From an uncultured Candidatus Saccharibacteria bacterium (GTDB lineage: Bacteria; Patescibacteriota; Minisyncoccia; UBA6257; 1-14-0-10-44-23), in assembly GCA_964549935.1 (NCBI GenBank), contig CAZJVT010000001.1, forward strand, positions 219,922-283,921: a DNA stretch of 64,000 nt. The letters are read 5' to 3'. Below the pieces are notes generated by a model. That model worked only from the letters and a program-made list of their open reading frames with translations, did not search any database and was not told the DNA's origin. The position numbers and the translations under genes are program-made. Positions within the stretch are counted from its first letter, which is position 1; the number at the start of each line of letters is the position of its first letter. Positions 5,698 to 61,075 of this stretch are shown one piece after another.

Positions 5698-5728
5698 TTG
5701 ACAGATTCGCATTTAGTGGTAATATACT
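5698..5728 (+). promoter_or_regulatory. Sigma70-like promoter (TTGACA-N16/17-TAATAT)
   Basis: TTGACA at 5698, then TAATAT/TATACT 16-19 nt downstream, in the intergenic gap after dus. Confidence 0.4.
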
Positions 5729-5732
5729 GGCT

Positions 5733-5771
5733 GCCTCCTCGTCCTCATATGGCGAGGCGGTTTCGTTTTTC
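5733..5771 (+). promoter_or_regulatory. Hairpin plus U-run immediately downstream of the promoter (attenuator-like leader or dus terminator)
   Basis: GCCTCCTCG..CGAGGCGG stem then TTTCGTTTTT. A second hairpin CTCTGCGCGGCAGAG follows. Confidence 0.35.
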
Positions 5772-5828
5772 TCTGCGCGGCAGAGAAGCGGAATGGCTGT
5801 GAGGTAGCTCTTTGGAAGGGAGGGACTC

Positions 5829-6539
5829 TTGGAGAGAGGTAATTTTGGGGACGGAGATAAGAGTTTGCCTCCCGAAGGCAGCTCTTCATCTGCTGTCGCC
5901 ACCGTAGAGCGGCAGAGGAGCCGTCGTGGCGGGCGAGCGGTCCGGGCAGCGAAGGACGATCGTCAGCGGCCGCCGGAGGACACGACGCACTCCGGCTTGA
6001 TGGCGGCGCTCGGCGACGAGACGAGGGCGACCGCTCTCCTCTCGAAGGTCTGCTTCCTCGCTCGCGCGAGGTACGGCATCCTGCCGCAAGACGCCGAGGA
6101 CATCTTCAGTGACTCGGTCGTGACGTACCTGAAGATCCACCAGCGCTACCCACTGAACGAGAATCACTTCGGGATTCTCGTCGGTGTGTTCCACAAGAAG
6201 TCGCTGGAGTTTCTGGACGGGCGTGACCGTAGCGTCCGCGTGGCAAGGAGATTCATCGCTCGTCTGCAGGCCGAGAGGCCCGAACTCGCTCGCGGCGAGG
6301 ATCCGAGCGGGGCTGCCGTCGAGCGTGTCCTTCGCGAGGAGGATGCGACGCTCATTCGGGCGGCGATCGCGTCTCTTCCTGTGGACACGCGCGAGCTTCT
6401 GCTTAAGCTCGCCGAGGGCGGGATGACTCGTCTGGAGATGATCGAGGCGCTCGGCATCAACCGCAACACGTTCGACACGCGACTGCGTGCCGTCCGGTTG
6501 CGACTCAAGGAAGCGCTCGAGAATTCCGGCGTGCTGTAG
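5829..6539 (+). CDS. ECF-type RNA polymerase sigma-70 factor
   Basis: Region 2 (DAEDIFSDSVVTYL) and region 4 (LPVDTRELLLKLAEGGMTRLEMIEALGINRNTFDTRLRAVRLRLK). GC is about 66%. The ORF as listed begins at a TTG; a more typical start is the ATG at 6000. Confidence 0.7.
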   Translation: MERGNFGDGDKSLPPEGSSSSAVATVERQRSRRGGRAVRAAKDDRQRPPEDTTHSGLMAALGDETRATALLSKVCFLARARYGILPQDAEDIFSDSVVTYLKIHQRYPLNENHFGILVGVFHKKSLEFLDGRDRSVRVARRFIARLQAERPELARGEDPSGAAVERVLREEDATLIRAAIASLPVDTRELLLKLAEGGMTRLEMIEALGINRNTFDTRLRAVRLRLKEALENSGVL

Positions 6540-6765
6540 CGCCGGAAAGGATTATATAATTGCCTTCGCGTGTGGGCCTTTCCGAAAGGAGAAACAACAC
6601 GCAGTAGAGATTAGGAGTGCGCCATCACGGCGCAGCACAGGAGGGGCACCGTCATACGGGCCCTTTTTGCTTTTTGTAAACAGTGGGGTTTTTATGAAAA
6701 GAGACAAGCCCGCGCGAGACGATCGCGCGGGCCGTGCGCCCCGAAAGGGGTGTGTCTTGCTGTGG

Positions 6766-7029
6766 CTACCGGCCACTCTCAGCGAGTTCGAGCTCCTTCT
6801 TCTCGATCTCGAGCGCTGCCTTGAGTGCCTTGGGGTCGACCTCGACCCCATAATGGCTCTCCCAGATGATGTGTTGGGCATGTTCGCGCCCGCACACCTG
6901 GCAATACCTCTCTGCATTGAGGTATTTGCTTTGGGTTTCGTTCTTCGGTGTCGCCATGACGATACCGAAGGCCGTCACCATCAGCACGCCGGCAAGTAGC
7001 CCGACCTTCTCGATGGTTCCGAGGTTCAT
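6766..7029 (-). CDS. Small membrane-anchored protein with a CxxC..H motif (hypothetical; possible anti-sigma-like partner)
   Basis: 87 aa. Perfect AGGAGG SD 7 nt upstream. N-terminal TM helix. CQVCGREHAQH motif. High GC, convergent with the ECF sigma gene. Confidence 0.45.
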   Translation of the reverse strand: MNLGTIEKVGLLAGVLMVTAFGIVMATPKNETQSKYLNAERYCQVCGREHAQHIIWESHYGVEVDPKALKAALEIEKKELELAESGR

Positions 7030-7058
7030 AGGGCTGGCCTCCTAACCAGTAAGCGTTT

Positions 7059-12525: not shown

Positions 12526-12578
12526 TTTTATATTGACGATTTTAGTTGGGAGAGTAGTATGTGGCTAAAGGAGGGGTC

Positions 12579-12887
12579 ATGAAGAAATCATGGAAGCCAC
12601 GTCTTGGCTTTGCAGTTTGCGGCGGGCTTTTCATCGCCGCCATCTACAGCCTCATCGTCTGCTTCACTGATGACGAGAGGTTCCCAGCATCCGAGTTCTC
12701 GGGTCTCGCGGTCGCCAGGATGTTCCTGGCGGGAGGCCTTCTGACGGTCATCATCGATCTCCTAGTGTCTAGCACAGACGAGGATGACAAAGGCGATCGC
12801 GATGACGACGATCCGCCGTCTCCTAAGCGTTCGCCGCTCCGAACCGGTACCCGGTCTCGGGGCGGTTCGCACTTTGAGAAAGTTTAG
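12579..12887 (+). CDS. Small two-TM protein with an acidic tail (hypothetical, high GC)
   Basis: AAGGAGG SD 6 nt before the ATG at 12579. GC about 58%. DEDDKGDRDDDD tail. Confidence 0.4.
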   Translation: MKKSWKPRLGFAVCGGLFIAAIYSLIVCFTDDERFPASEFSGLAVARMFLAGGLLTVIIDLLVSSTDEDDKGDRDDDDPPSPKRSPLRTGTRSRGGSHFEKV

Positions 12888-12924
12888 TATGTGATTCGGA
12901 GGCTAATCCTCTGTTATACTTGAA

Positions 12925-16326: not shown

Positions 16327-16602
16327 GTTCGCCGGTGAGGGCGACCCGCGCGGTGAAGCGAACGTGATGGTGTTTTTCTGCGTACAGCGACCCGTCGGCA
16401 TTGCGAAGAGGCCTACGGGCACCCAAAGCTTCGGCATCAGGTTAAGCATTTCATGATCGCGTAAGCGATCGCCTTAGCTATTGGTCTGGGCGCTCTACTC
16501 TGTCACCCTCTCAGCGAATGTGTGGCACGTGGCCACGCGGTAGGAGACCGAAGTACCCTTTCCGACTCTTCGCTTTTCCGCCACCATCACGTGAAGGACG
16601 CG
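16327..16602 (-). ncRNA. Candidate structured ncRNA of unknown class (promoter to terminator, no ORF)
   Basis: Minus-strand TTGACT-N18-TATGAT promoter (plus 16607-16636). A 12-bp 5'/3' closing helix CACGUGAUGGUG/CACCAUCACGUG. Internal hairpins. Intrinsic terminator (plus 16327-16372). No ORF of 60 aa or more in any frame. Confidence 0.35.
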
Positions 16603-16811
16603 CCCATCATAGCTCTTCGCTGCTTTTCTAGTCAAGTTTCTTTTTGGTGCTTACTGGTTTATAGTTAGGGAGTTAGTACCCCACAGAGATCGGCGAGTAG
16701 CGCACCTGCCTACCGGCAGGCAGGTCTCATGGGGTGAAAACTTGAGTGACCCACGCCTTTGGCGGGGTGCTCAAAATTATATCTACTCAAGTTCTCGTAA
16801 ATAATTTTGGC

Positions 16812-17654
16812 ATGTCTAAGTACTACAACCCGCAAAAAGGTTCCGCCTACTGCTTTGATCCAAAATCGACGCAGCCGTTTCGGTTGAGTCGCAGTAAGAT
16901 TGATTTGTTTTTGGAGTGCCAGCGCTGCTTTTATATCGACCGACGCGTGGGTATCGGTCGTCCGCCGGGTTTTCCGTTTTCCTTAAACTCCGCCGTTGAC
17001 ACACTGCTTAAAAAAGAGTTTGACGGTCACCGCGCCGCCGGTACACCGCATCCGTTTATGAAGGCCTACGGGCTCGATGCGATTCCATTTGCGCACGAAC
17101 GTATGGACGAGTGGCGTGATTCACTGCGTCGCGGAGTAACGTACGTTGACCCAAAAACAAACTTCAATGTAACCGGAGGCGTGGACGACCTTTGGGTAAA
17201 TCAGGCCGGAGAATTAATCATTGTTGATTATAAGGCGACGGCGAAGACCGGCGAGGTCAGTCTGGATGCGGAGTGGCAGGATGGCTACAAGCGCCAGATG
17301 GAAACCTATCAGTGGCTGTTTCGTAAAAATGGGTTTAAAGTTTCTCCGACCGGTTACTTTGTCTACGCTAATGGCGACTTAGATGCCGAGGCATTTGATG
17401 GCAAGCTGGAGTTTAAGGTTAAGTTGATTCCATACGAAGGCGACACAGCCTGGGTTGAGCCGACGCTTATTAAGGCAAAGGCCTGTTTGATGAGTGACGA
17501 GATCCCGCTGGCGCATGAGGAGTGCGATTACTGTCGCTACCGGTTTGCTGTCACTCGCGCGGAAGGGAAGGGCAATGAGACTGCGAGCATAAAAGCAGCA
17601 GGAAAGAAACCTAAGCCAAAGGCAGAGAAGCCGAAGACAATAGGGCTCTTTTAA
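16812..17654 (+). CDS. PD-(D/E)XK nuclease with a 4-Cys cluster (Cas4/RecB-like, standalone)
   Basis: N-terminal CQRCFY plus C-terminal CDYCRY cysteines and a central IIVDYKAT (D..K) motif. Start taken at MSKYYNPQ rather than the upstream TTG. Confidence 0.6.
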   Translation: MSKYYNPQKGSAYCFDPKSTQPFRLSRSKIDLFLECQRCFYIDRRVGIGRPPGFPFSLNSAVDTLLKKEFDGHRAAGTPHPFMKAYGLDAIPFAHERMDEWRDSLRRGVTYVDPKTNFNVTGGVDDLWVNQAGELIIVDYKATAKTGEVSLDAEWQDGYKRQMETYQWLFRKNGFKVSPTGYFVYANGDLDAEAFDGKLEFKVKLIPYEGDTAWVEPTLIKAKACLMSDEIPLAHEECDYCRYRFAVTRAEGKGNETASIKAAGKKPKPKAEKPKTIGLF

Positions 17655-18194: not shown

Positions 18195-18222
18195 TTGACC
18201 CGAATTGGCAAGCGTGCTATAG
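18195..18222 (+). promoter_or_regulatory. Sigma70-like promoter (TTGACC-N16-TATAGT) with a long leader of about 115 nt before the RRM gene
   Basis: Duplicated TTGACC at 18185 and 18195, with TATAGT at 18217. Confidence 0.4.
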
Positions 18223-18343
18223 TGATTTGGCTCGTAGGTATCCTTGGTTTCCGTTTCGTATAGCCGCTCGTTTAACCCGAGGCAGGCCTGGTTTCTCAAG
18301 GAAGGTCTTTCTACAGCGTTAATAGTTTCTGATATCTAGATAA

Positions 18344-18619
18344 ATGAAAAAGTTGTACGTAGGGAACCTTCCTTACTCAACGACCAGCGACGACCTGAAG
18401 GGAGTTTTCTCTGCAGCCGGCGCAGTTGCTACTGCTACCGTTATCATCGACAAGATGAGCGGCCGCAGCAAGGGCTTTGGTTTCGTTGAGTTCGAGAACG
18501 ACTCAGACGCCGATAAGGCGATTGAGATGTTCAACGGCAAGGACATGGAAGGCCGCCCGCTCACCGTTAACGAGGCTCGCCCGATGGCTCCTCGCACCGG
18601 TGGCTTCGGCCGAATGTAG
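18344..18619 (+). CDS. RRM-type RNA-binding protein
   Basis: RNP2 LYVGNL and RNP1 KGFGFVEF motifs. 91 aa. Confidence 0.8.
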   Translation: MKKLYVGNLPYSTTSDDLKGVFSAAGAVATATVIIDKMSGRSKGFGFVEFENDSDADKAIEMFNGKDMEGRPLTVNEARPMAPRTGGFGRM

Positions 18620-18893
18620 TCCTTGTTGGTCTTCGACCAATAATGATCCTAGTAAAAGCGTCCTCTATACGAGAGGGCGCTTTTACGTTTTGGAGCTGGG
18701 GGCGTTCGGGCTTTTATCAAGACGGCCACGGATACCTTTTAGTGGCCGCTATGATAAAAACCCGAACGCCTAAGGCGCGGAATGGTCTCGCCTGCACTCG
18801 GTGAGTTGGATGCTAAGGTGGCCCTGCGGGCTTTTTTATATAGGGGATTGGTTATTCGCTTTTTTGAAGTGAGAAGTGGTAAACTAATTCCAT

Positions 18894-22033: not shown

Positions 22034-22068
22034 GGGCTTTTTAGGTTAGAATTGATGAAAGAGGGTAC

Positions 22069-22098
22069 TTGACAAAATGTCATAAAGTGTGCTATAAT
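22069..22098 (+). promoter_or_regulatory. Consensus sigma70 promoter TTGACA-N18-TATAAT
   Basis: Exact TTGACA and TATAAT hexamers. The ORF listed from 22069 starts on the -35 box and is spurious at its 5' end. Confidence 0.55.
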
Positions 22099-22104
22099 AT
22101 ATTA

Positions 22105-22251
22105 ACAGGCGGGATAGGGTTTGGTGCTGCAAAACAGCTTCAAACTCTGCCTCGCACGGTGCTTGGTAGACCTTGGGTCCCGGGGAGTGGACGGTTGGCG
22201 AAAGCTGACACCCGCGCTGGCGTATGCCAGAAACGGAAAGGAAGAGTGGAG
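22105..22251 (+). promoter_or_regulatory. Structured 5' leader with ykkC-family (guanidine-I-like) riboswitch-like motifs
   Basis: GGGAUAGGGUUUGG (compare CUAGGGUUCCG), GGGUCCCGGGGAG (compare GGUCCGAGAG) and ACGGUUGGCGAAAGC (compare ACGGAGGGAAAAAAGC), in the same order as the B. subtilis ykkC leader. Additional CUGGCGUAUGCCAG hairpin. Confidence 0.3.
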
Positions 22252-22458
22252 ATGTTGAAGAATCTCACAAGGGAAGAGGTCATCAAGACTCTCTTCGACG
22301 GCGACGAGTGCGAGCTCGATCGCCGGATCGCAGAGGTCGCCTGGCAAGAGCCGGCGGCAATCAGTCTCGGCGTGAAGGGTAGGCCTGGTCTGCTCACGCA
22401 GATCGATGAGAGCAACTTCACTCTCGAGATCGCCGGCGCACTTGCCGGCTGGCGGTAG
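22252..22458 (+). CDS. Small hypothetical protein (68 aa, high GC)
   Basis: ATG preceded by AGGAAGAGTGGAG. GC about 62%. In frame with the longer listed ORF. Confidence 0.35.
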   Translation: MLKNLTREEVIKTLFDGDECELDRRIAEVAWQEPAAISLGVKGRPGLLTQIDESNFTLEIAGALAGWR

Positions 22459-23210: not shown

Positions 23211-23246
23211 AAATCCCCCGGAGTTCCCGGGGGATTTGCTTATTTT
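23211..23246 (+). terminator. Rho-independent terminator
   Basis: AAATCCCCCGGAGTTCCCGGGGGATTT then GCTTATTTT. Confidence 0.6.
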
Positions 23247-23355
23247 AAGAAAATTTGGTATTCTTATCTCACTGAAATTTGGCCGCTGGCCATTTTTGAT
23301 TTCCCAAAGGGAAGTCCTGCCGCATTCAGTAGAATGCGGCGATTATATAACTACT

Positions 23356-25146
23356 ATGGTAAGTCCTAAAATCCGCAACATCGCAATCATCGCGCACGTC
23401 GACCACGGCAAGACGACTCTCGTTGATGCACTTTTGAAGCAGTCTGATAACTTCACCATGAAGGTGAACGGCAGCGGGGAATTAATCATGGACAACAACG
23501 AGCTCGAGCGTGAGCGCGGTATTACGATTTTGGCTAAGAACGCTGCTATTACTTACAAGGGCATCAAAATCAACATCGTCGACACGCCGGGACACGCTGA
23601 CTTCGGCGGCGAGGTGGAGCGTATCATGAGCATGGTAGACGGAGTTCTTTTGCTCGTGGATGCCCAGGAGGGTCCGATGCCGCAGACCAAGTTCGTTTTG
23701 AAAAAAGCTATCGAAGCCGGGCACAAGGCTATCGTGGTTGTCAACAAAATCGACAAACCGGCGGCGCGTCCGGAGTGGGCGCTTGATGAAACCTTCAGCT
23801 TGTTTATCGACCTCGGCGCCTCTGATGAGCAGGCACACTTTCCGGTCGTCTACGCTTCCGGTATCGCCGGTAAGGCCGGACTTAAGCCGGACATCACGAC
23901 GATGAAGGATATTACGCCGCTTTTTGATAAGATCATCGAATACATTCCGGCTCCGGTTGTCGACGAGACTGTGCCGCTTCAGCTGCTGACGATTAACTTG
24001 GCTTACGATACTTACAAAGGAAAGATGGCTATCGGCCGTTTGCATTCCGGCACCTTGAAGCCGAACCAGCAGGTGATGCACATCGATCGCGCCGGTAAGA
24101 TGAAGAAGGCACAGCTGACTAACGTTTTGATTTTCGACGGCATGAACCGCAAGGAGGCGACCGAGGTCGTCGCCGGTGACATCTGCGCGATTGCCGGTAT
24201 TCCGGATATCACTATCGGCGAAACGATCGCTGACATCAACGACCCGCGTCCGCTCACGCCGATTAAGATTGACGAGCCGACCATCAAGGCGATTTTTATG
24301 GTCAACAAGAGTCCGTTCGTCGGTAAGGAAGGGCAGTACATCACGAGCCGTAACATCAAAGAGCGCTTGGAGCGTGAGACCGAGACCGACGTTGCTTTGA
24401 AAATGGAGGAGACGGAGGACTCGGACCGTTGGATTATGTCCGGTCGTGGTGAGTTGCACCTCGCAATTTTGATTGAAAAAATGCGCCGCGAGGGTTTTGA
24501 GCTGGCCGTCGGAAAGCCGCAGGTCATTTACAAAGAAATTGACAAGGTGAAGATGGAGCCATTTGAGCTCGTGAGCATCGAGGTTCCGAATGAGTCAACC
24601 GGCGTTGTTATTCAGGACTTTGGTCAGCGCCTTGGCGAGATGCGCCACATGACCCAGGACGGTCCTATTACCAAGCTTGAGTTCTCGATTCCAACGCGCG
24701 GACTTATCGGTTACCGCAGTGACTTTATGACCCGTACCAAAGGGCTCGGTATCATGAACACGATTTTCGATTCGTATAAGCCGATGAAAGGCGATATTAC
24801 TAAGTTGCCGCACGGCTCGCTCATTGCGACCGAAGCCGGTGAGTCTACCAACTACGGTTTGCTTTTGGCGCAGGACCGCGGCGTGCTCTTTATCGGCCCG
24901 GGCGTGAAGATTTACGAAGGAATGGTTGTCGGTAAGAACGCTAAAGATATGGATCTGCGCGTGCACGTCGGCCGCGAGAAGCAGTTGACCAACTTCCGCG
25001 CCAAGAACGAAGGTATCGGCGCCTTCCTCGAGGCTCCGACACTGATGACGCTCGAAGACTCGTTGGAGTATATCTCTGACGACGAGATCGTCGAGGTCAC
25101 CCCGAAATCGATTCGTATCCGCAAAATGGACTTAAAGGCAAAGTAA
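23356..25146 (+). CDS. typA: Translational GTPase TypA/BipA
   Basis: [17 protein letters not shown] and [11 protein letters not shown]-like domain order. Start taken at MVSPKIRN; the listed ORF begins 120 nt upstream in non-coding sequence. Confidence 0.85.
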
Positions 25147-25151
25147 AATAC

Positions 25152-25175
25152 AAAACCGGGCTTCTGCCCGGTTTT
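25152..25175 (+). terminator. Rho-independent terminator
   Basis: AAAACCGGGCTTCTGCCCGGTTTT. Confidence 0.6.
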
Positions 25176-25217
25176 GTTATAGAGATGAACGAGACCTCGA
25201 CGCAGGGCGCCGGGGTC

Positions 25218-25463
25218 TCATTCGCTGCAGAAGTAGAGGTGGCGGTGTCGGTAGCCGATCCAGACTCCGGTTGTTTTAGCGAGCAGGGTCTCGCATGCAG
25301 CAACGAGAGCGAACCGGTCGGCGATCAACGTGCCGGGAGCGGAGAGGTCATCGACGTTCCCGGGGATGACGATGACCGGCATGCCTTTCCCGAGCGTGAA
25401 CCACCAAGCCTCCTCTGGCGTGCGCACCATGCGCACGCTGTCTGGGTCGATGTGCGTGCACAT
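25218..25463 (-). CDS. Small high-GC hypothetical protein (81 aa)
   Basis: AAGGAG SD 9 nt before the ATG, with TATACT upstream. GC about 62%. Weak resemblance to the N-terminus of an alpha/beta hydrolase (PVIVIPG). Confidence 0.3.
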   Translation of the reverse strand: MCTHIDPDSVRMVRTPEEAWWFTLGKGMPVIVIPGNVDDLSAPGTLIADRFALVAACETLLAKTTGVWIGYRHRHLYFCSE

Positions 25464-31091: not shown

Positions 31092-31250
31092 TTGAGCGAT
31101 CATCTGTCCGAAGATGGGGAGTGTACGGAATGTGGCTCTCCCGATGTCTACATCAAGAAGTGCCCGCAGTGCGGGCAGGAGGTCGAGGCTGCTCATGACA
31201 GCGCCTGTTCGCATCACGAGCAGAAGCACCTCTGTCACGCCGCAGCGTGA
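31092..31250 (+). CDS. Small zinc-ribbon protein (52 aa; TTG start; not in the ORF track)
   Basis: AGGAGG SD 6 nt before the TTG. CTECG..(15)..CPQCG ribbon plus extra C/H residues. GC about 62%. Confidence 0.3.
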   Translation: MSDHLSEDGECTECGSPDVYIKKCPQCGQEVEAAHDSACSHHEQKHLCHAAA

Positions 31251-34683: not shown

Positions 34684-34882
34684 GTCCAAGGAGTCAAACT
34701 CGGCTCAAAGTTTTTACAAACACTATTCGTATGAATAGTAGTGTTAATTCAGTATTTTATATTTTCAGAAAAGTTTAGCGCAGCAGCGCAAACGCCGAGT
34801 TTGTACTACGGGATTGCTTTTCTTTTTTCGAAAGAGTAGATTCTGTTGTGTCTGCGCGTGTCGTGGACAAGGAGGAGATACG

Positions 34883-35353: not shown

Positions 35354-35361
35354 CAGCAACT

Positions 35362-35406
35362 GGGCCGTAGGCCGACCGTGGAGGTCGCCCTGCGGCCCTC
35401 ACGTTT
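35362..35406 (+). repeat. 45-bp 3' hairpin repeat, copy 1
   Basis: GGGCCGTAGGCCGACCGTGGAGGTCGCCCTGCGGCCCTCACGTTT, identical to 35992-36036. Confidence 0.6.
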
Positions 35407-35486
35407 TAATATTTAAGTTTGCTTTTCTTTTTTCAAAAGAGTAGATTCTGGTTGTGTCTGCGCGTGTCGCGGGCAAGGAGGAATCG

Positions 35487-35987
35487 ATGAATCACAAGAC
35501 GTATCTCGGGTGGGTCTCGCGACTGCGCGGGTTCGCTCTGCGCAGGCCGATCGACAGGGATGACCTCAAGGACGTCCTGGAGTATCTGGCGAAGCAGCTT
35601 CCGGAGCACGAGGAGAAGATCGCGCGCGCCGAGGCGAAGACCCAGGAGTTCGAGTTCGGAGGGCAGTGCTTTGTCCCCCTCGAGCGGGACGACAGGACGG
35701 GTGTCATCGTCCTGGAGTACGCCTACGGCAATGTCTGGTCGCCTCTTCACCGGCATGGGCGGTCAACCGATCCGAGTGAGCCGGGCGAGATCGTCGACAC
35801 CTACGACGGACTTCTGCTCGACCGCCACGCCAATGGCAGCGTGATCACTCATCGTGTCGGCGACCCTTCGATCGTTCATCTGCCCGGGAGCATTCATCAG
35901 CCGCTCATCTACGGCGGATGGGTCGGGAGCTTCTGGCATCCTGTCCGAGCGGAGGACCTCGACCTCGAGAAGCTGCTCGGGGTGTAG
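35487..35987 (+). CDS. Cassette ORF 2: cupin-like hypothetical protein (high GC)
   Basis: AAGGAGG SD 5 nt before the ATG. SPLHRHG..E and PGSIHQP resemble the two cupin motifs. GC about 63%. Confidence 0.45.
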   Translation: MNHKTYLGWVSRLRGFALRRPIDRDDLKDVLEYLAKQLPEHEEKIARAEAKTQEFEFGGQCFVPLERDDRTGVIVLEYAYGNVWSPLHRHGRSTDPSEPGEIVDTYDGLLLDRHANGSVITHRVGDPSIVHLPGSIHQPLIYGGWVGSFWHPVRAEDLDLEKLLGV

Positions 35988-35991
35988 CACC

Positions 35992-36036
35992 GGGCCGTAG
36001 GCCGACCGTGGAGGTCGCCCTGCGGCCCTCACGTTT
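35992..36036 (+). repeat. 45-bp 3' hairpin repeat, copy 2
   Basis: Identical to copy 1. Confidence 0.6.
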
Positions 36037-38138: not shown

Positions 38139-38158
38139 GGAGAATGATTGTATCTAGC

Positions 38159-38231
38159 AAAAGCCGCCGAAAGGCGGCTTTTGCGTTTTTGGCTCTCACG
38201 GCTCAACGGCGTACCGTTGAGCCGTTGAGGT
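38159..38231 (+). terminator. Terminator-repeat family copy 1 (hairpin + U-run, then a second 10-bp-stem hairpin)
   Basis: CAAAAGCCGCCGAAAGGCGGCTTTTGCGTTTTT then GGCTCAACGGCGTACCGTTGAGCC. Paralogous to 40958 and 41751. Confidence 0.6.
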
Positions 38232-38261
38232 TAGAAAGGCCTTCGTAGAGGCGTTTTTCTT

Positions 38262-40957: not shown

Positions 40958-40994
40958 ACAAAAGCCGCCGCCGGGCGGCTTTTGGGTTTTTGGC
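40958..40994 (+). terminator. Terminator-repeat family copy 2 (first hairpin only)
   Basis: CAAAAGCCGCCGCCGGGCGGCTTTTGGGTTTTTGGC. Confidence 0.6.
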
Positions 40995-41745: not shown

Positions 41746-41750
41746 CTTAA

Positions 41751-41824
41751 CAAAAGCCGCCGCAAGGCGGCTTTTGTGTTTTTAGCTCTCACGGCTCAAC
41801 GGTACGCCGTTGAGCCGTTGGGGA
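41751..41824 (+). terminator. Terminator-repeat family copy 3 (both hairpins)
   Basis: CAAAAGCCGCCGCAAGGCGGCTTTTGTGTTTTT then GGCTCAACGGTACGCCGTTGAGCC. Confidence 0.6.
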
Positions 41825-41842
41825 TTGGAAGGCCTATGCTTA

Positions 41843-41871
41843 TTGACTTTTTTGTACTTTAATTCTATAAT
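41843..41871 (+). promoter_or_regulatory. Sigma70 promoter (TTGACT-N17-TATAAT)
   Basis: Near-consensus hexamers upstream of the high-GC gene at 41939. Confidence 0.5.
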
Positions 41872-41938
41872 ATTCCGCATTGTCCGCGCAGTGCGGATGA
41901 CGGTTTCGGGCGTAACCCGGACCCCAAGGAGGGGAACG

Positions 41939-42547
41939 ATGAGGCTTTCAACTGATGTTCTGGTGCAGATCGTGCGCCCGCTGGTGGGGTCCAAGGACCT
42001 CGGCATGCGAGGAACCGCGATCGTGCTGGCGATGAACCCGGTGTTGGACGCGGCGCTCGACTTCTTCGGGACCCCGGCGCACAGCGGAGGTCCGGGCGAG
42101 CCGCAGCGCACGGGCTTCTATGTGAGCGTGGGAGATCAACGCAGCGGCGACGTGGTCCACACGGTTCGCTTCGGCGACATGATGGGGCCGGGCTACGACG
42201 GAGAGCGCCGACGCCGCTACGAGCGCAACGCTGCGAACAAGGTCCGGTTCGCCATCGATCGAGACGTCGAGACGAGCTGGGACATCCGGGACGACAAGGC
42301 AGATCCGCCGATCTATCCGGGTAGCGTCCGGATGATCGACTGGCACTTGGCGGTCTCGGGTCTTTCGAGCGGCCACAAGGACCAGGCGGTCGTGCTGGTG
42401 GGAGGAATGTACCTCCACGTCTGCGGGTTCTTCCTCGGTCGCGGCCCTGGAATCGGCCCGACCAAGGCCTTCGGCATCGCAGAACGGACCCAGGATCCAG
42501 AGTTCGAACCGTTCCTCGCGTTCGTCCGCTCGCGCGGGATCTTCTAG
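41939..42547 (+). CDS. High-GC hypothetical protein (202 aa)
   Basis: AAGGAGG SD 5 nt before the ATG. GC about 66%. The listed ORF starts upstream at 41810 across the promoter. Antisense ORFs 41865-42602 and 41948-42583 are judged spurious. Confidence 0.45.
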   Translation: MRLSTDVLVQIVRPLVGSKDLGMRGTAIVLAMNPVLDAALDFFGTPAHSGGPGEPQRTGFYVSVGDQRSGDVVHTVRFGDMMGPGYDGERRRRYERNAANKVRFAIDRDVETSWDIRDDKADPPIYPGSVRMIDWHLAVSGLSSGHKDQAVVLVGGMYLHVCGFFLGRGPGIGPTKAFGIAERTQDPEFEPFLAFVRSRGIF

Positions 42548-42650
42548 CGGGCACGGGCGCCTGACCGCCCAGTACATATCCAAGCCTTAAGGCGCGGTTC
42601 ATTCCGCGTGCAGCAACCCGGCCCCCGGGACGAAACGACTCGTCAGGGGG

Positions 42651-42782
42651 TCTTTCGTTTTTTGCCCTTGCTCATCCTTAAAGCACCGCGTCAGGCTTGC
42701 CCGTCTCTGGAGGGCGCTTTTATAATTGAGTAGCAAGGCGCACACCCGGCGCTTGCGAGAACGCAAGCGGTAAGGGTGTTTC
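42651..42782. repeat. Intergenic repeat family copy B
   Basis: Homologous to 22511-22637 (CCGCGTCAGG, GCTTTTATAATT, CACCCGGCG, GCAAGCGGTAAGGGTGTTTC). Confidence 0.45.
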
Positions 42783-43299: not shown

Positions 43300-43371
43300 C
43301 GTGGGCCGCCGGCGATCATTGGGTCGCTTCGGCGGCCCTCTGATTTTGTAGAAAATAAGAAAGGGCTTGAC

Positions 43372-53833: not shown

Positions 53834-53978
53834 GGGTTGAGCTGTATTAAAATAGTTCTATCATCTGGCCAGAAATCAGAATCGGCCAGCCCTCGAAAGG
53901 ACCGGCCGATTCAGCTCGCCATTTGTCGCAGCTACACTGCTGCGACCTGCCCGGGTTGCGGGCGCGCCTGGCGGGGCG

Positions 53979-54464
53979 CTATTTCTTCTCGTCGTATCCG
54001 ACGATGAGAGTCAGCGAGTTTTCCGGCGGGCTGGAGATCGCCGGTATCAGTCCGTCGCGCGGATATGCGCATCGTTGGACCTTGACTCGACTGCCCCTGG
54101 GGTAGGGCTTCTGTTCGGCGCAGTTCATCATCGCAATGAACTCGCTGCTCAGATTGCGAACCCCGTCCCAGTTTTCCGGGAGCGTCCCGTCAGACTTCAG
54201 GAGCCTGCGCTCCTTGAGCTGATCTTCCTTGCAGACGGCGACGTAGTACAGGTCGCCTGCCCACCGGAGCGGGTAGTCCATGACGATGTAGCCGTCTTCC
54301 AGCTTGTTGGTCGCCCTGAATTGCTGCATCGTGAAGGGCATGCGCCCCTTGGCTTCGAGCGCGCCGGCAGTCGGCCCGGTGCCTTCGGCCTCCAGCGACT
54401 GCCGAATCCCATTGACCAGAGCGAGAGCCAGCAGCGCGATGACTATCCAGTGTCTTTTCTTCAC
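53979..54464 (-). CDS. High-GC secreted hypothetical protein (GTG start)
   Basis: GGAGG SD 6 nt before the GTG. Signal peptide MKKRHWIVIALLALALVNG. GC about 62%. The overlapping + strand ORF 54075-54671 is judged spurious. Confidence 0.45.
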   Translation of the reverse strand: MKKRHWIVIALLALALVNGIRQSLEAEGTGPTAGALEAKGRMPFTMQQFRATNKLEDGYIVMDYPLRWAGDLYYVAVCKEDQLKERRLLKSDGTLPENWDGVRNLSSEFIAMMNCAEQKPYPRGSRVKVQRCAYPRDGLIPAISSPPENSLTLIVGYDEKK

Positions 54465-54652
54465 GGCCCACCTCCATTTCCCAGCGGGCGGTATGCCCTA
54501 GCTGTTAAATATATTACAGCACACTTTATGATATTTTGTCAAGTATTGGAGCCAGAGTTAACTATTGGCGCCGCCCAGGCCAAAATCCTCGATTCCATAG
54601 ACTTTTCTGCACCCTATTGCATGTTGATTATATTTGTTACAATTAATAGCAA

Positions 54653-56842: not shown

Positions 56843-56880
56843 TATACTGAAGTAAACAGTAAACTATTACATTTTTAACC

Positions 56881-59424
56881 ATGTTTCATTTTCCGACGAA
56901 AGCGGGGTTTTACAGTTTTCTTTTATTAATTGGTGCAACAGCCAGCATGTTGCTTGGTGCGTCGGTTCGGAATCTTGTTTCCGAGAGTAACACCAGAACA
57001 ACCTATCTGGGTTTGGCAGCTATGCAATTTGCAGCTCCTGCCGCAATTACGAGCGTACCATCGCAACCAACAGGCTTTATTAGTAGCGACACCCGCTTTG
57101 CGGTTGCGTCGGCCTTGCCTTCGGTGGTGCAGTTTGCCAGTGACGGCAGCGAGAAGTATGAAGTTGTTACCCAGCCAAAATTGGCAGCGGGTGATGGAGA
57201 GCACGAAGTTATTTCAGTCTTAAAAGGCGAGGCAGTTGTTTTGACGCCTTGGAAGAAGTGGGCCACTCCTGCTCCGGGCGCATCGTGGATTAGCTACAGT
57301 AAAAAGACCGGGGCGAATAAAGACGGAAATGCACGGAATAAAGGCCCGATGAACGGCACAGTTGTTCGCTTTACAAAAAATGTTGAACTTGCCGCCCCGA
57401 GCGTTTCAGGCTTGATTGCGGTGATGGCTGATGACACAGTGAAAGTTTCGGTTGACGGTAAACAGCTTTTTTCCAGCAAGAACGGGCAGCGCGGGCTGTC
57501 ACAAACTCCGAAAATCGTAACAGTTCCAAAGCTTACGGCCGGCAAGCATAAGTTCACGTTCGACGTTGCGCAGTACGATCAGGCAGACGCGCGTCCTTTC
57601 GGCGTGACATTTAACGGTTATCTGATGGGTGCGCCCGCAGCGAGCGAACAGAAAGTTGCCGGCGGCACTTCTATGATAAAGCTTGGAACGCTTGCTTTCT
57701 TGGGTAACGGCAGTGAGCAGACACTGACGTATCTTAAAGTATCTATTAATCACCTTGATCCGACTTTTACGAGCGTCGGGACAATTCCCGCCGGCGAGAT
57801 TAAAAATATTCAACTGATTGATGAATCGACTGGAATCGTCGTGAAGGCGATCCCTAACTATCGCGTCACTTCGGACACGACTTGGTGTGCTTATGCCGGT
57901 AGTGCAAACAAGTATGGCTTAAGCTGTAACTTTGGCAGCACGCAGAAACCGATCAGCTACACCTTCCCGGCTGCGCCGCTTGGTACGCCGCGAGTAATTT
58001 CGTTGTTTGCCGACGTGGCGACAACCGGGAAAACGTACACGTTGCAGGCGAGCTTTGAGGGTGGAGTCGACAATCTTCGCAGTATCGCTCCGGCTTCAAA
58101 AGAAGAGGCTCGCTATAATACTCCGGCTGTAGCAGGCGCAGCAATCACGGTTTCAGCTTCAACCCCGACAGGCGAGACAACTGATACTTCAGGGGGCACG
58201 ACGAGTGGCGCATCGGGGAACGGGACTACGCCGGCTGCTGCTCCGACGCAGTGCCAGCAGTACCGTACAGCCTCGCCGGAAACCTATGATGATTGTATAG
58301 AAAACCCTGCGGCGTATCCTTCTGCCGGTTCGAGTGGCTCCACCGGAAGCAGCGGTTCAACGGGCGGCATAGTTAGCAACGACAGCAAAAATGACAACCA
58401 CGGTGCGACTAACTCCACCGGAAGCGTCAGCGGTAGTTCTTCGGCGGGCGGTAGCGGAGCTCTCTCGGTGACACCTCCTCCGCTTTCTCTCCCAATTTCT
58501 TATCTGACTATTGCCACTGATTCTGCGACTCCGGTCGGCAAGAAGATTTACGGAGGTAATGCGGGGATTCCTCTTCTTAAGGTTCGTTTAAGTGTTGACG
58601 CGGCCCCGGTTGGCGTTAAGATAACGCAGCTTAGGTTTGTTGATAACGTGCAGGATGCCGGCGGTCAGCCGACATTCGCGAAGTTTACGCTTTACCGGAA
58701 CGGCGGAGTGGTAGGAGATAATTCGACGTATGTTATTAATGAGAAACCGGGTATTGCTACGATTCTCTTTAAGACGCCGCTCGAAATTCAGTCTGCCGGT
58801 GTTACGACGCTCGAGCTTCGCGGCACAGTCCTTAGTTTTCCGGAAAAAATTGGTGCCGGCTCGGTGCACGCCTTTAGTCTTGCCGCCGCCGATGTTGTTG
58901 CCACTAATGCTAATGTAAATGGCTCCGCGCTCGGTAATCCTTTTACAGCCTACCGAACTTCAATTGATCTCCCAACGCCGGTCGCCATCGGGCCGGGGGT
59001 GAGCCGTGTTCGGACGAGCGTCGACGAGGTTGTCTCTGTGCCGTTTAAAAACGGCGGAGCGATTCCGGCAAAAATTACCAGTGTCAAATTCAAGATCAGC
59101 GGTTCGGCGCTTGTCGGCGTCACTCCGTTTGTCGTTGATTTGCTAAGCGATACAAATTCCTCGTTTGGTGCGCAGAGCTGCACGCCGGTTAACGGCACTT
59201 GCTACGTTGAATTTTCGCTCGGCAATCTTCAGCTTGCCGCCGGACAGACGCGGTCAGTTCGTATGCGTGTCAATTCGAGCAAGTTTAAGAATGATACCGC
59301 CGCGCTTGATACCTTTAGCGTCATGATAGAAAGTGGCGCGGATGTAACCTACAACGACGGAGTTTCGACGCTCAATCTGGACATCCCGTCTCCAAAGACG
59401 ATCGTTTCGTTGATCTATCAATAG
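56881..59424 (+). CDS. Large secreted surface protein (847 aa) with an S/G/T-rich linker
   Basis: Signal peptide/TM at the N-terminus. Central TGETTDTSGGTTSGASGNGTT..SSGSTGSSGSTGG linker. Beta-rich repeat domains. Confidence 0.5.
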   Translation: MFHFPTKAGFYSFLLLIGATASMLLGASVRNLVSESNTRTTYLGLAAMQFAAPAAITSVPSQPTGFISSDTRFAVASALPSVVQFASDGSEKYEVVTQPKLAAGDGEHEVISVLKGEAVVLTPWKKWATPAPGASWISYSKKTGANKDGNARNKGPMNGTVVRFTKNVELAAPSVSGLIAVMADDTVKVSVDGKQLFSSKNGQRGLSQTPKIVTVPKLTAGKHKFTFDVAQYDQADARPFGVTFNGYLMGAPAASEQKVAGGTSMIKLGTLAFLGNGSEQTLTYLKVSINHLDPTFTSVGTIPAGEIKNIQLIDESTGIVVKAIPNYRVTSDTTWCAYAGSANKYGLSCNFGSTQKPISYTFPAAPLGTPRVISLFADVATTGKTYTLQASFEGGVDNLRSIAPASKEEARYNTPAVAGAAITVSASTPTGETTDTSGGTTSGASGNGTTPAAAPTQCQQYRTASPETYDDCIENPAAYPSAGSSGSTGSSGSTGGIVSNDSKNDNHGATNSTGSVSGSSSAGGSGALSVTPPPLSLPISYLTIATDSATPVGKKIYGGNAGIPLLKVRLSVDAAPVGVKITQLRFVDNVQDAGGQPTFAKFTLYRNGGVVGDNSTYVINEKPGIATILFKTPLEIQSAGVTTLELRGTVLSFPEKIGAGSVHAFSLAAADVVATNANVNGSALGNPFTAYRTSIDLPTPVAIGPGVSRVRTSVDEVVSVPFKNGGAIPAKITSVKFKISGSALVGVTPFVVDLLSDTNSSFGAQSCTPVNGTCYVEFSLGNLQLAAGQTRSVRMRVNSSKFKNDTAALDTFSVMIESGADVTYNDGVSTLNLDIPSPKTIVSLIYQ

Positions 59425-59464
59425 AGGATATAACGGGAGCCCGTTTTGCTCGGTACAACAAAAA

Positions 59465-59490
59465 ATCCCGCCTTGCAGCGGGATTTTTTG
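59465..59490. terminator. Bidirectional intrinsic terminator
   Basis: AAAAAATCCCGCCTTGCAGCGGGATTTTTTG, with A/T runs on both sides. Confidence 0.6.
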
Positions 59491-60022
59491 GTACCTCGTA
59501 AACGGGATTCTGTTTGAGTGATGATAATTTGTCTGGGCCTATGATTACTCATAAGCTCAAGCGGTACTTCCGTCTTGCGACGGACACGACCTTGCACCTC
59601 GTAAGGATTTAGCCGTTTCACCCCAGCTTTTTTATCTCTATCGCTGGATTAATCCTTTTGGCCTGAGATTAGGATCTCCATGTCTTTTCAGACCGGACGC
59701 GCCTGCACCAGAGTCGCTTACGCGACACGGCGTAGGGCAGTCCTGAACTGTGCTGCCAAAGGCAGCTCTAGTTCATGGACGTCACTGCTCGCACCTGTAC
59801 CTTGCGGTTCGCGGCTGTTAGCCGCTACGTTCCAATGTGGCTCCGAGCGAAGCGAGGCTAGCACATTGAGAACCCCGCAGAATGCGGGGTCTGCCCACGC
59901 CTATGGCGGGGCACTCACTGTTGTAGTTGCTCGAAATACTCGCAAACAACACTGGTGGAGTCCCGATTTTCCTCATCTCCCACTTGCGCAGGGGATGTAA
60001 TCATCCGAGTACCGTTTATTTA
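59488..60022 (-). ncRNA. rnpB: RNase P RNA (bacterial type A-like, extended)
   Basis: Reading the minus strand: P2 GGUACUCG pairs with CGAG(G)UACC. P3 hairpin CAUCCCCUGCGCAAGUGGGAGAUG. GAGGAAAAUCGGGACUCC (compare GAGGAAAGUCCGGGCUCC) pairs with ACAGAAUCCCGUUUAC (compare ACAGAACCCGGCUUA), giving P4 with the bulged U. GCAAGGUACAGGUGCG resembles the conserved GGUAAGGGUGAAAGGGUGCG block. Upstream promoter and 3' terminator. Confidence 0.6.
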
Positions 60023-60153
60023 TATCATAAATGCCGATTTTCGGTCAAATGCAACAAAGTTGCATTAATATAGCCAAGTTTTGTGAATGAGTGTCAATGC
60101 AGGCCAGAAAAGATTATAGAATATAGGCTTTCAGCTGTTTAGGCCTCTATCTA

Positions 60154-60182
60154 TTGACAATTTAAATAATGTATGCTATACT
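60154..60182 (+). promoter_or_regulatory. Consensus-like sigma70 promoter (TTGACA-N17-TATACT), about 110-nt leader
   Basis: Exact -35 with a good -10, upstream of the high-GC secreted gene. Confidence 0.5.
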
Positions 60183-60295
60183 AGTACTTGTCTCATGAAA
60201 TCTCGGTTAAAGGTCCCGTTGGGGCTACTGGGGTGGAGTGGGCATGTAACGCTAGCTTGGGCTTAACGGCCTGGGTTAGGTGGAGGGAGAGAGTC

Positions 60296-61075
60296 ATGGT
60301 CAATCGCAGGAAGTCGTGCATCGCGTCGATCGCGATGGTTCTCGGATTCGTCTTCGGCTGGTGGGGGTTCTCCCCCGACGCCAAGGCCGGCGAGGGCCAG
60401 CTCTTCATCGGCTCGCGGCCGGTGGCGGAAGCGGGCGGCGGCTCGGCCAGCGCCGAGGCGTACCAGAAGTCGGAGGCCAAATCCCGGCGCATCGTGTTCA
60501 ACAACAACACGGGAAGCGAGGCGACCTTCGACCTCACGATCCGCGGCGTCAAGATGACGGGCGCCAGCTTCTATTGGCAGCGCGCCAACACGACGATCAA
60601 GGCGGGCGACGGCTTCTTCAAGGTCCTGCCGCCCGGCGAGTACGCGGGCAGCGCCCGGGATCTCGACGGGAATGTCGTTTCGAAGAAGAAGTTCGTGGTG
60701 ACTTCGAAGCGCGACTACGTGGTGCCGATCGGCACGGCGGTCACTCCGCCGACGCCGACTGGGACGGGGATCCTCCTCGTCAACAACACCGGCGTGACGT
60801 GGAACGTGCTGTTCACGCTCAGCAGTCCGTCGTACCTCGGCGGGGGTGAGCTCGGCTACACCTTCGCAAGTCAGGTTCCGAACCTGGCGATCGCCTCGGC
60901 GCTTCCGCCGACGGGCGATCTCGTCTCGTACACCATCAAGGTGACGACGATGACGACCCCAGCGGTGACGATCACTGCGGGCCCCGGAACGGGAGTCACG
61001 GCGTCGGACGGGAAGACCCGGACGATCGTGCTGGTGAGAAACGCGGATGGAACTTACGGGGTGAAACCCCTCTAG
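60296..61075 (+). CDS. High-GC secreted hypothetical protein (259 aa)
   Basis: GGAGGGAG SD 6 nt before the ATG. Signal peptide. GC about 65%. The listed ORF starts at 60188 across the leader. Confidence 0.45.
   Translation: MVNRRKSCIASIAMVLGFVFGWWGFSPDAKAGEGQLFIGSRPVAEAGGGSASAEAYQKSEAKSRRIVFNNNTGSEATFDLTIRGVKMTGASFYWQRANTTIKAGDGFFKVLPPGEYAGSARDLDGNVVSKKKFVVTSKRDYVVPIGTAVTPPTPTGTGILLVNNTGVTWNVLFTLSSPSYLGGGELGYTFASQVPNLAIASALPPTGDLVSYTIKVTTMTTPAVTITAGPGTGVTASDGKTRTIVLVRNADGTYGVKPL

Follow-up and report, generated by a model that had tools for sequence, protein, structure and literature searches.

Scattered GC-rich, Shine-Dalgarno-led ORFs between housekeeping genes of a Candidatus Saccharibacteria genome: probably a lineage-intrinsic accessory class

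We analyzed a stretch of 64,000 nucleotides from an uncultured Candidatus Saccharibacteria bacterium (assembly GCA_964549935.1, contig CAZJVT010000001.1, positions 219,922 to 283,921; hereafter the window, whose own numbering is used throughout). Scattered between its housekeeping genes lie twelve open reading frames (ORFs) of high GC content that are led by Shine-Dalgarno (SD) sequences, which we call the class and name individually by their first coordinate. All twelve had been listed in a preliminary description of this DNA, and all are present there, in frame and terminated by a stop codon. The ORFs and their flanking elements are listed below, with lengths in amino acids (aa) and GC content at third codon positions (GC3).

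5698-5725, plus strand: sigma-70-like promoter of the ECF-like sigma module, TTGACA-16-TAATAT
5737-5757, plus strand: hairpin and U-tract with CCTCC in the ~100-nt leader of the ECF-like sigma gene
5829-6539, plus strand: ECF-like sigma factor ORF, 236 aa, GC3 0.77, SD GGGAGGG
6707-6733, minus strand: terminator hairpin of the 6766-7029(-) module
6766-7029, minus strand: membrane-anchored ORF, 87 aa, GC3 0.76, SD AGGAGG
12533-12560, plus strand: promoter-like TTGACG-16-TAGTAT of the 12579 module
12579-12887, plus strand: membrane ORF, 102 aa, GC3 0.66, SD AAGGAGG
12897-12913, plus strand: terminator-like hairpin of the 12579 module
22069-22098, plus strand: perfect TTGACA-18-TATAAT promoter of the 22252 module
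22252-22458, plus strand: ORF of 68 aa, GC3 0.77, with a structured leader of ~150 nt and a weak SD; the least certain member
25150-25177, minus strand: terminator hairpin after 25218-25463(-), with A/T-rich stem arms
25218-25463, minus strand: ORF of 81 aa, GC3 0.79, SD AAGGAG at ~10 nt, -10 box TATACT
31092-31250, plus strand: zinc-ribbon ORF in the M50/rpsL slot, 52 aa, GC3 0.68, SD AGGAGGTG
34814-34876, plus strand: 5' flank of cassette 1 (promoter TTGCTT-N17-TAGATT, leader and SD), 94% identical to 35419-35482
34883-35353, plus strand: ORF of cassette 1, 156 aa, GC3 0.77, predicted PNPOx-like split beta-barrel
35347-35406, plus strand: 3' flank of cassette 1, a 44-nt imperfect hairpin and T-rich tail, 93% identical to 35979-36036
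35419-35482, plus strand: 5' flank of cassette 2
35487-35987, plus strand: ORF of cassette 2, 166 aa, GC3 0.81, unrelated to the ORF of cassette 1
35979-36036, plus strand: 3' flank of cassette 2
41843-41871, plus strand: TTGACT-17-TATAAT promoter of 41939, also conserved among relatives
41872-41938, plus strand: 67-nt leader of 41939, 64% GC, with two hairpins and AAGGAGG
41939-42547, plus strand: ORF of 202 aa in the rpsJ/rplC slot, GC3 0.83
42637-42652, plus strand: terminator of the 41939 module, 89% identical to its counterpart at related locus L088
42865-43299, plus strand: hydrophobic ORF of 144 aa with about four transmembrane helices (by eye), GC3 0.86, SD AAGGAGG
43321-43338, plus strand: terminator of the 42865 module
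53879-53912, minus strand: terminator of the 53979 module, with a 15-bp stem
53979-54464, minus strand: ORF of 161 aa with a signal-peptide-like N-terminus (by eye) in the SecY/PGK slot, GC3 0.80, SD GGAGGTG
54502-54545, minus strand: promoter element of 53979, conserved together with GGGAAATGGAGG in a relative
60154-60182, plus strand: promoter TTGACA-17-TATACT of the 60296 module, conserved in a relative
60296-61075, plus strand: ORF of 259 aa with a signal-peptide-like N-terminus (by eye), GC3 0.89

The class ORFs have a GC content of 0.576-0.654 in a window of 51.9% GC. The preliminary description had placed them at 60-66% against a backbone of about 50%; the high GC holds, with four ORFs falling just below 60%. 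Their GC3 (0.66-0.89) exceeds the GC content at second positions (GC2, 0.35-0.53) by 0.2-0.5, a coding-type periodicity, and their profile over first (GC1), second and third positions is like that of a genome of ~65% GC. As a reference we hand-curated 57 native genes, drawing on greedy longest-ORF predictions and on the genes called in syntenic relatives. GC3 is not uniform across the two groups, being 0.568±0.059 (range 0.37-0.67) in the native genes (Mann-Whitney p=4e-8 against the class), and GC content at 4-fold degenerate sites (GC4) averages 0.78 in the class and 0.54 in the natives. A GGAGG motif lies 4-9 nt upstream of the start in 10 of the 12 ORFs, in place of the GGAGG-type site at 5-9 nt earlier ascribed to every one of them; 25218(-) has AAGGAG ~10 nt before its start and 22252 only AAGGAA/GTGGAG. 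SD matches of at least 5 nt precede all 12 class ORFs and just 3 of the 57 natives (Fisher p=5e-11), in agreement with the claim that native genes start without an SD. Since the ORF set had originally been chosen on both GC and SD, this test is partly circular, and we therefore scanned the window for all ORFs of 40 aa or more that have an SD-like motif and a GC3 of at least 0.66. The scan recovered 10 of the 12 (22252 and 12579 fell narrowly below its cut-offs); the remaining matches lay inside or antisense to genes already counted and were judged spurious, leaving no convincing additional member in the window at these thresholds.

Could such ORFs be an artefact, either of chimeric assembly or contamination or as chance open frames in GC-rich non-coding RNA? 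Stop codons are scarce in GC-rich DNA, 25218(-) is absent from the public gene calls, and in a related genome (locus L090) an antisense ORF was called at 16370-17434. Nine of the ten class ORFs that we looked up (all except 22252 and 31092) are called genes in the NCBI record, a 357,676-bp contig. The looked-up proteins are singletons at 90% identity except 60296, which clusters only with an extended version of itself (295 aa) from a Logan contig, and class proteins recur in independent assemblies, namely the NCBI contig and Logan contigs of other runs. Furthermore, native promoters and terminators surround the modules, their synteny is kept in relatives, and Rfam finds no RNA family inside them. 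AlphaFold2 (AF2) models built from family alignments reached a predicted local distance difference test (pLDDT) score of 90.2 for 41939 and 97.1 for 34883. The twelve ORFs are real protein genes, because GC3 lies far above GC2, AF2 confidence is high (pLDDT 90 and 97) and they belong to conserved families; we give an artefact almost no credence. As an observation on gene calling, the public call on the minus strand of L090 had taken an antisense frame (GC1 0.80) of a GC-rich ORF at 16406-17275(+), showing that gene callers trained on the core genome can place class genes on the wrong strand.

The class also has a common layout. Sequences with at least 10 of 12 matches to the consensus TTGACA-N16-18-TATAAT lie upstream of 5829, 22252, 41939 and 60296, and weaker promoter-like matches precede 12579, 34883, 35487, 42865 and 53979, which bears out the earlier claim that several ORFs have promoters of their own. 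The window's best sigma-70 consensus matches precede class modules and the main native operons, and the total of promoter-like matches in the window is not above shuffle expectation. Hairpin terminators follow most class ORFs. We conclude that most members are monocistronic: a sigma-70-type promoter is followed by a structured, GC-rich leader carrying a canonical SD, then by a GC-rich ORF and a hairpin terminator. Some flanking elements are shared: the element at 22066-22108 recurs inverted and 93% identical at 54502-54545, and the native gene 3' of the two cassettes has a promoter (TTGCTT-N17-TACACT) similar to that of the cassettes (TTGCTT-N17-TAGATT). The hairpin at 25150-25177 lies directly 3' of the stop codon of the plus-strand gene 23236-25146 and may serve both strands. 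In the leader of the ECF-like sigma gene, the CCTCC of the 5737-5757 hairpin could pair with the downstream SD, and the hairpin may act as an attenuator or SD-sequestering switch. Known cis-regulatory RNAs or riboswitches in the long leaders were considered and dropped, as Rfam returned nothing at E<=0.01 except RNase P, and uniform SD sequestration by a thermosensor-like switch was likewise abandoned because predicted accessibility was mixed.

Class and native genes differ in how translation would start. Over positions -30 to -1 the GC content is 33% in natives and 59% in the class, whole leaders have a GC content of 0.35-0.47 and 0.55-0.64, respectively, and the mean folding energy over -30 to +30 is -12.8 kcal/mol in the class versus -5.9 kcal/mol in natives (p=1e-6). 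AU-rich leaders of 70-125 nt that lack an SD precede tuf, rpsL and the rplC operon, and core initiation therefore appears to be SD-independent as such and not only a matter of leaderless mRNAs. Core genes would thus initiate SD-free on AU-rich, weakly structured regions. Because class mRNAs are GC-rich and strongly folded, this route would be unusable for them, and they would need SD:anti-SD pairing to recruit the 30S subunit, making the SD a probable functional necessity for the class. SD-poor translation regimes and the genome classes of GeneMarkS-2 (PMC6028130) offer a parallel. As in the SD-poor regimes of Bacteroidota and cyanobacteria, core starts here are SD-free on A/U-rich unstructured regions; the difference is a sizeable SD-led minority that forms an accessory, GC-rich class with structured mRNAs. 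In the literature we found no account of such an SD-led GC-rich accessory class in Patescibacteria.

To place the class in its lineage, we compared the window with about ten related loci, each up to 21 kb. The close relative GCA_964641225.1 (loci L082, L090 and L099) has EF-G, EF-Tu and SecY proteins 92-96% identical to those of the window and is collinear with it over three regions, roughly window positions 370-20,560 and 25,540-63,880. The segments that fail to align are exactly the intergenic slots that hold class ORFs. Between the M50 gene and rpsL, the place of the window's 52-aa zinc-ribbon ORF is taken in the relative by an unrelated ORF of 139 aa with SD GGGAGGT and a GC3 of 0.62 (natives ~0.48); between fusA and tuf, where the window has two cassettes, the relative has one 173-aa ORF with a GC3 of 0.70. 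The SecY/PGK slot of each genome contains an ORF on the minus strand that is preceded by a homologous promoter and GGGAAATGGAGG, and the proteins are unrelated. The slot before the large surface-protein gene, occupied by 60296, has a homologous promoter and SD in the relative (L090), followed by a 289-aa ORF with a GC3 of 0.88 that is unalignable at protein or DNA level, and in a third genome (L094) the slot holds an ortholog with 52% identity and a GC3 of 0.85. The DinB/PDDEXK slot holds a 272-aa SD-led ORF (GC3 0.77) in the relative and only a remnant in the window, and the 12579 ORF belongs to a ~3.8-kb stretch with an MFS transporter and a pilin-like gene that is unmatched in the relative's Dus-to-FAD-oxidase region (L099). 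Finally, members of the 41939 family occupy the rpsJ/rplC slot in four further genomes (loci L083, L084, L085 and L088) with a GC3 of 0.73-0.85, and their promoter and two-hairpin leader can be aligned to those of the window (41841-41936 is 85% identical to L088). Representatives of GTDB species proved too distant for a synteny test; their best EF-G matches, from metagenome-assembled genomes labelled Saccharibacteria, Parcubacteria or Patescibacteria, are 62-70% identical, and their str/S10 region has no GC3 outliers. Outside translation genes, the most conserved part of the window relative to GCA_964641225.1 is 18201-18689, which holds an RRM_1 gene (18344-18619, 91 aa) and, flanks included, is 91.5% identical over 494 nt.

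These comparisons bear directly on the origin first proposed for the class, namely that its members were taken up repeatedly and fairly recently from a donor of high GC that uses SDs, an actinobacterial host for instance, and that their GC content has not yet been ameliorated. The ~65%-GC-like codon-position profile and the gain and loss of modules fit such a proposal, as do relatives of the ECF-like sigma factor in a 72%-GC contig (58-61% identical) and under a Planctomycetes label. However, in at least four slots (Dus/UvrD, rpsJ/rplC, SecY/PGK and the one upstream of the surface-protein gene) relatives have orthologous or analogous high-GC modules with a conserved promoter and SD, so that the class is not strain-specific; this is the outcome that the preliminary description had itself named as speaking for a lineage-intrinsic class over acquisitions. 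The promoters, too, belong to the AT-rich native type and are shared with those relatives. Moreover, no actinobacterial name occurred among the few organism labels returned by homology searches, and the slots are shared with other Patescibacteria, which speaks against host-to-symbiont transfer from an actinobacterium; for comparison, no strong sign of host-derived genes is reported for TM7x, the best-studied Saccharibacterium (PMC7427843).

The protein families themselves point the same way. An exhaustive HMMER search of six concatenated ORFs against 1.84 billion cluster representatives yielded 125 matches in all: ~60 for the ECF-like sigma factor, ~45 for 34883, ~7 for 35487, three for 53979 and one for 60296, with no homologue of 42865 among these representatives. 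This sensitive search excludes the five smallest ORFs (6766, 12579, 22252, 25218 and 31092). A shared-word search with 41939 as a single query returned only itself, and homologues required profiles or exhaustive HMMER; its family profile found 26 proteins among 5.8 billion, all hypothetical, the named ones being labelled "Patescibacteria group bacterium". For the 41939, 34883, 35487, 53979 and 60296 families, every member that is named or could be read from its context is patescibacterial, most matches coming without a taxon. Top matches of an actinobacterial kind, as the donor model had led one to expect, were thus replaced by small families with named members from Patescibacteria and a single Planctomycetes label. 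Together with 34883-family members on contigs of 29-52% GC, empty phage and plasmid searches and a GC3 that stays high at near-saturated synonymous sites (see below), this makes recent import from a high-GC donor highly improbable as the source of the class.

In contrast to the slots themselves, their contents turn over rapidly. Loci L087 and L088 have 99% identical flanks around a module of ~800 bp in L088 and 64 nt of unrelated sequence in L087. Between L083 and L084, fusA, tuf and rpsJ are 90-92% identical (4-fold identity 0.69-0.72), whereas the slot ORFs share 29% aa identity and a 4-fold identity of 0.33, the random level; the flanks are again well conserved, at 88% over 91 nt upstream and 96% over 100 nt from the stop codon. 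This is an allelic replacement that affects the ORF alone. The fusA/tuf cassettes of the window have 94% identical 5' flanks and 93% identical 3' flanks around unrelated ORFs, and a 34883-family member in L095 sits in another slot with other flanks. Different genes or none thus occupy the same site in the M50/rpsL, fusA/tuf, rpsJ/rplC, SecY/PGK and DinB/PDDEXK slots, and the part of the preliminary description that spoke of expression-ready modules stands: units of promoter, SD leader, ORF and terminator are gained, lost or replaced on short time scales. The sharp identity breaks at ORF ends suggest recombinational exchange. This turnover would probably proceed through homologous recombination between conserved sequences on the two sides (flanking core genes, with promoter and leader at one end and terminator at the other), leading both to presence/absence polymorphism and to ORF-only replacement. 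Pfam scans of window proteins, which did not include every small ORF, found no integrase, transposase or phage structural gene, and the precomputed Pfam annotation of the syntenic relatives has no recombinase domain; a type IV pilin-like gene is present in the window.

Rapid turnover could also reflect continuing import from an unseen, clade-specific GC-rich mobile reservoir (phage, plasmid or GC-rich sister lineage) of moron-like units, in which a universal SD would secure translation in any host and frequent resupply would keep GC high. The promoter-ORF-terminator layout is indeed moron-like, and ORF replacement and presence/absence polymorphism would be expected of such units. Distant candidate-phyla-radiation (CPR) genomes have islands of small, SD-led, Pfam-less ORFs (L092 6385-11257 and L096 850-6170) with a GC content above that of adjacent core genes, and a CPR-like contig of 56-65% GC (L093) holds a 41939-family member among SD-led genes. 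Yet a tblastn search with all 12 concatenated proteins found nothing in 50,697 phage (INPHARED) and 72,556 plasmid (PLSDB) records; PHROGs gave just a generic sigma-factor match and one weak match of unknown function; the 34883 family is absent from IMG/VR; and the 41939 model has no significant Foldseek neighbour in BFVD. The absence of integrase, transposase and phage structural genes among the scanned proteins also counts against a reservoir, as do the window-clade alleles being the GC-richest of their families and the slot promoter, leader and SD being inherited with the chromosome. We regard a mobile reservoir as unlikely, though with a real claim to attention.

Predicted structures gave a fold for one family. 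Foldseek matched the 34883 model to PNPOx-like, Nim, PaiB and piperazate-synthase chains in the PDB (E=3e-5 to 1e-3, probability 1.00, TM 0.5-0.65), and the 34883 product is accordingly modelled as a PNPOx-like split beta-barrel, with no Pfam match at sequence level. The 41939 model has no significant neighbour in the PDB either; a GlcG/DUF336 assignment of its family, prompted by a motif resemblance, was unsupported by Pfam, a PDB profile search and Foldseek. PADLOC returned no defence-system match for the class ORFs.

If the class was not recently imported, its composition calls for an explanation. Ordinary genes of the window and GCA_964641225.1 have a 4-fold identity of 0.31-0.54, which is near saturation, so any donor composition acquired before the two lineages split should be strongly decayed; slot ORFs nonetheless have a GC3 of 0.62-0.89 in both, which argues that the high GC is not left over from a donor. 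Nor is a high-GC reservoir visible for the CPR families, since 34883-family members elsewhere lie on contigs of 29-52% GC. At these other loci a clear SD-like motif precedes 7 of 13 members, with (GGAA)n directly upstream in three more, and GC3 exceeds the local background at 10 of 13, by 0.03-0.22. In L096, a locus of 31% GC, SD-led Pfam-less ORFs have a GC3 of 0.24-0.32 versus 0.09-0.22 in SD-less neighbours. The link between SD and higher GC extends beyond this clade and is strongest here.

We compared predicted mRNA stability with synonymous shuffles within each gene. Class ORFs of the window had a mean z of -2.08 (one-sample t-test p=2e-4) and 14 class ORFs of relatives -1.79, versus -0.02 and -0.14 for size-matched natives of the window and the relatives and -0.58 for 19 genes that match the class in GC3 but come from organisms of truly high GC. 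We take this as evidence, though not as proof, of selection on RNA structure in the class ORFs. GC would accordingly be held at a class-specific level, most likely by selection on mRNA structure or stability, which is the weakest step of the argument, and GC-biased gene conversion at recombination-prone slots possibly contributes.

Another explanation would do without a special class: weakly expressed genes would rest at a GC-rich mutational equilibrium, translational selection would pull the core to A/U-ending codons, and an SD would be the default at low expression. Native genes do show a GC4 gradient, from 0.39-0.55 in ribosomal proteins and EF-Tu to 0.65-0.70 in Dus, UvrD, DinB and PGK, and the ECF-like sigma factor, at 0.74, lies only slightly above its neighbours. 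The fast-evolving large surface proteins, however, have a GC4 of 0.53-0.59, which disfavours a simple mutational equilibrium, and most class ORFs (GC4 0.78-0.90) exceed every native gene. GC1, GC2 and leaders are shifted as well, and the excess of mRNA structure over synonymous shuffles is specific to the class. Furthermore, mutation is AT-biased in nearly all bacterial lineages studied. We therefore consider an equilibrium without a special class improbable.

The ECF-like sigma factor stands apart from the other members. Its region 4 matches Sigma70_r4_2 at E=8.8e-5 (22.5 bits, under the Pfam cut-off of 25.7 bits), region 2 has no Pfam match, and a PHROG sigma factor is matched at E=3e-7. It thus resembles ECF (group 4) sigma-70 factors in its Sigma70_r4_2 and phage sigma PHROG matches and in having homologues named sigma-70 or sigma-24 family in their source records, and it differs from them in its sub-threshold region 4, undetected region 2 and small family. 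That family is tight, with at least 84 proteins at E<=1e-5 and 38-78% identity (BLAST local) among 8,000 scored candidates sharing words with it. Homologues with 58-61% aa identity lie on an unclassified contig of 72% GC (L097; GC3 and GC4 of the gene both 0.97), where a zf-HC2 anti-sigma-like ORF precedes the sigma gene and a sulfatase and a Ser/Thr kinase are neighbours; in the window no anti-sigma ORF is evident. A Planctomycetes label on one homologue is the sole non-CPR taxon label. The close relative has an ortholog between Dus and UvrD (GCA_964641225.1, 65% aa identity) with a GC3 of 0.66 against ~0.45 in its neighbours; GC4 is 0.74-0.76 in the window, where neighbours have 0.65-0.70, and 0.64 in the relative, where they have ~0.51. 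It is plausible that the gene is an old, partly ameliorated cross-phylum transfer from a high-GC bacterium. The earlier view of it as an actinobacterial-type import holds as far as its high-GC relatives outside the CPR go and is unsupported as to the donor phylum, the few labels returned including Planctomycetes and none that is actinobacterial.

Taken together, these data favour the reading that the class, the ECF-like sigma factor excepted, is a lineage-intrinsic, flexible set of accessory genes in intergenic slots between housekeeping genes, exchanged by recombination and with its composition maintained; we put its probability at roughly 60%. Several points weigh against it. Some of the five smallest ORFs, which lie outside the sensitive homology search, could be recent imports, and the origins of the class are mixed, as the ECF-like sigma factor is most simply explained by horizontal transfer from a high-GC bacterium. 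The reading provides no mechanism that would halt replacement at ORF ends, and the loci compared are not whole genomes. Predicted SD accessibility shows about half of the sites exposed and half paired, with no single regulatory logic. The synonymous-shuffle null keeps no dinucleotides across codon boundaries, and members of the 41939 family have z near 0. Finally, we know of no precedent for GC-biased gene conversion of such magnitude.

The class combines features of flank-recombination islets, of moron-like modules and of SD-poor genomes, all of which are known. In Neisseria, minimal mobile elements, reportedly described by Saunders and Snyder in 2002 and Snyder et al. in 2007, are said to be islets exchanged through their flanks. 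The slots resemble them in that a site between conserved genes holds different genes or none from strain to strain, without mobility genes and with flank homology that could explain the exchange; exchange here may likewise be mediated by transformation. In contrast to those islets, the cassettes differ from the core in composition and initiation signal, and the promoter, leader, SD and terminator are partly conserved while the ORF is swapped. Lambdoid prophage morons are reportedly promoter-ORF-terminator units of deviant GC (said to be described by Juhala et al. in 2000), and class modules share with them self-contained transcription units of deviant GC that lie between conserved genes and vary among relatives. 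They differ in their location in the chromosomal core (the str/S10/spc ribosomal clusters), their lack of phage homology and the upward direction of the GC deviation; prophage or moron cargo was set aside for want of a phage tblastn match, an IMG/VR relative of 34883 and a BFVD neighbour of 41939. The fusA/tuf pair also recalls integron cassettes, as tandem unrelated ORFs each end in the same imperfect inverted repeat and small ORFs of unknown function prevail. Unlike integron cassettes, these have their own -35/-10 pairs in place of Pc-driven expression, and the modules are dispersed among many loci. Directly after the 44-nt imperfect hairpin that both cassettes share comes GTTTTAA or GTTTCAG, and the terminators of other modules are unrelated to it. 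An integron array was rejected on the grounds that the scanned proteins hold no IntI-type integrase, the repeats no GTTRRRY core, and the cassettes have their own promoters.

A large part of bacterial diversity belongs to the CPR/Patescibacteria, whose gene expression is barely known. Should the pattern extend genome-wide, composition and SD would together separate core from flexible genes and would be a cheap finder of candidate host-interaction genes among hypothetical proteins. Mobile and accessory DNA is usually AT-richer than the core; the class would then be a case of accessory genes that are GC-richer. As their composition is seemingly maintained and not inherited from a donor, it also bears on the use of atypical GC as evidence of horizontal transfer, and ORF replacement between conserved flanks offers a concrete system for recombination-driven turnover in reduced genomes. 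A bolder, speculative and rather doubtful extension is that one small genome runs two insulated expression regimes, an SD-free AU-rich core and dedicated sites, each made up of a conserved promoter, a structured SD leader and a terminator, with interchangeable, GC-rich, SD-dependent ORFs under selection for structure and swapped ORF by ORF, making up an integrase-free analogue of an integron that would supply fast-changing proteins (secreted, membrane or regulatory) of the symbiont-host interface. In an extreme version, codon usage and SD of the class may be tuned to the ribosomes of a high-GC host.

Some further observations concern the families and loci above. In three JGI metagenome contigs (L100 ~5970-6000, L101 ~1305-1334 and L102 ~722-751), a (GGAA)n tract of 30 nt or more stands directly 5' of a 34883-family ORF and could form a slippage-prone, phase-variable ribosome-binding region. 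At L095 ~3400-4170, a tRNA-like gene is split by a long, intron-like insert and followed by a Cys-rich HNH-like ORF just 5' of the 34883-family module. Islands of 8-10 consecutive small Pfam-less ORFs, many of them SD-led, occur in lower-GC Patescibacteria at L092 5888-11257 and L096 850-6170; there the class seems to form clusters instead of being scattered.

Elsewhere in the window, a divergent class A bacterial RNase P RNA lies at 59483-60016 on the minus strand (full model 1-367, 48.5 bits, E=6e-12; the Rfam gathering score is 100). Being 534 nt long, it must carry insertions. Its surroundings are 72-92% conserved with L090 15561-16126, and the ORFs 59418-59621(-) and 59680-60000(+) that overlap it are unlikely to be genes. 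Downstream, at 61457-62016, a unit of ~230 nt is repeated in tandem about three times (76-81% identity) within a gene for a 736-aa surface protein with a CBM_14 (chitin-binding) match. An 88-nt direct repeat (38155-38242 and 41748-41835, 86% identical) brackets a 3.5-kb insertion of two genes of native GC that is absent from the rpsJ/rplC slot of every relative fetched. The terminator hairpin CAAAAGCCGCCG-loop-GGCGGCTTTTG occurs three times, at 38157-38184, 40959-40984 and 41750-41777, following rpsJ, an 865-aa PG_binding gene and a 236-aa gene, and the insertion looks as though it arose by recombination at the terminator.

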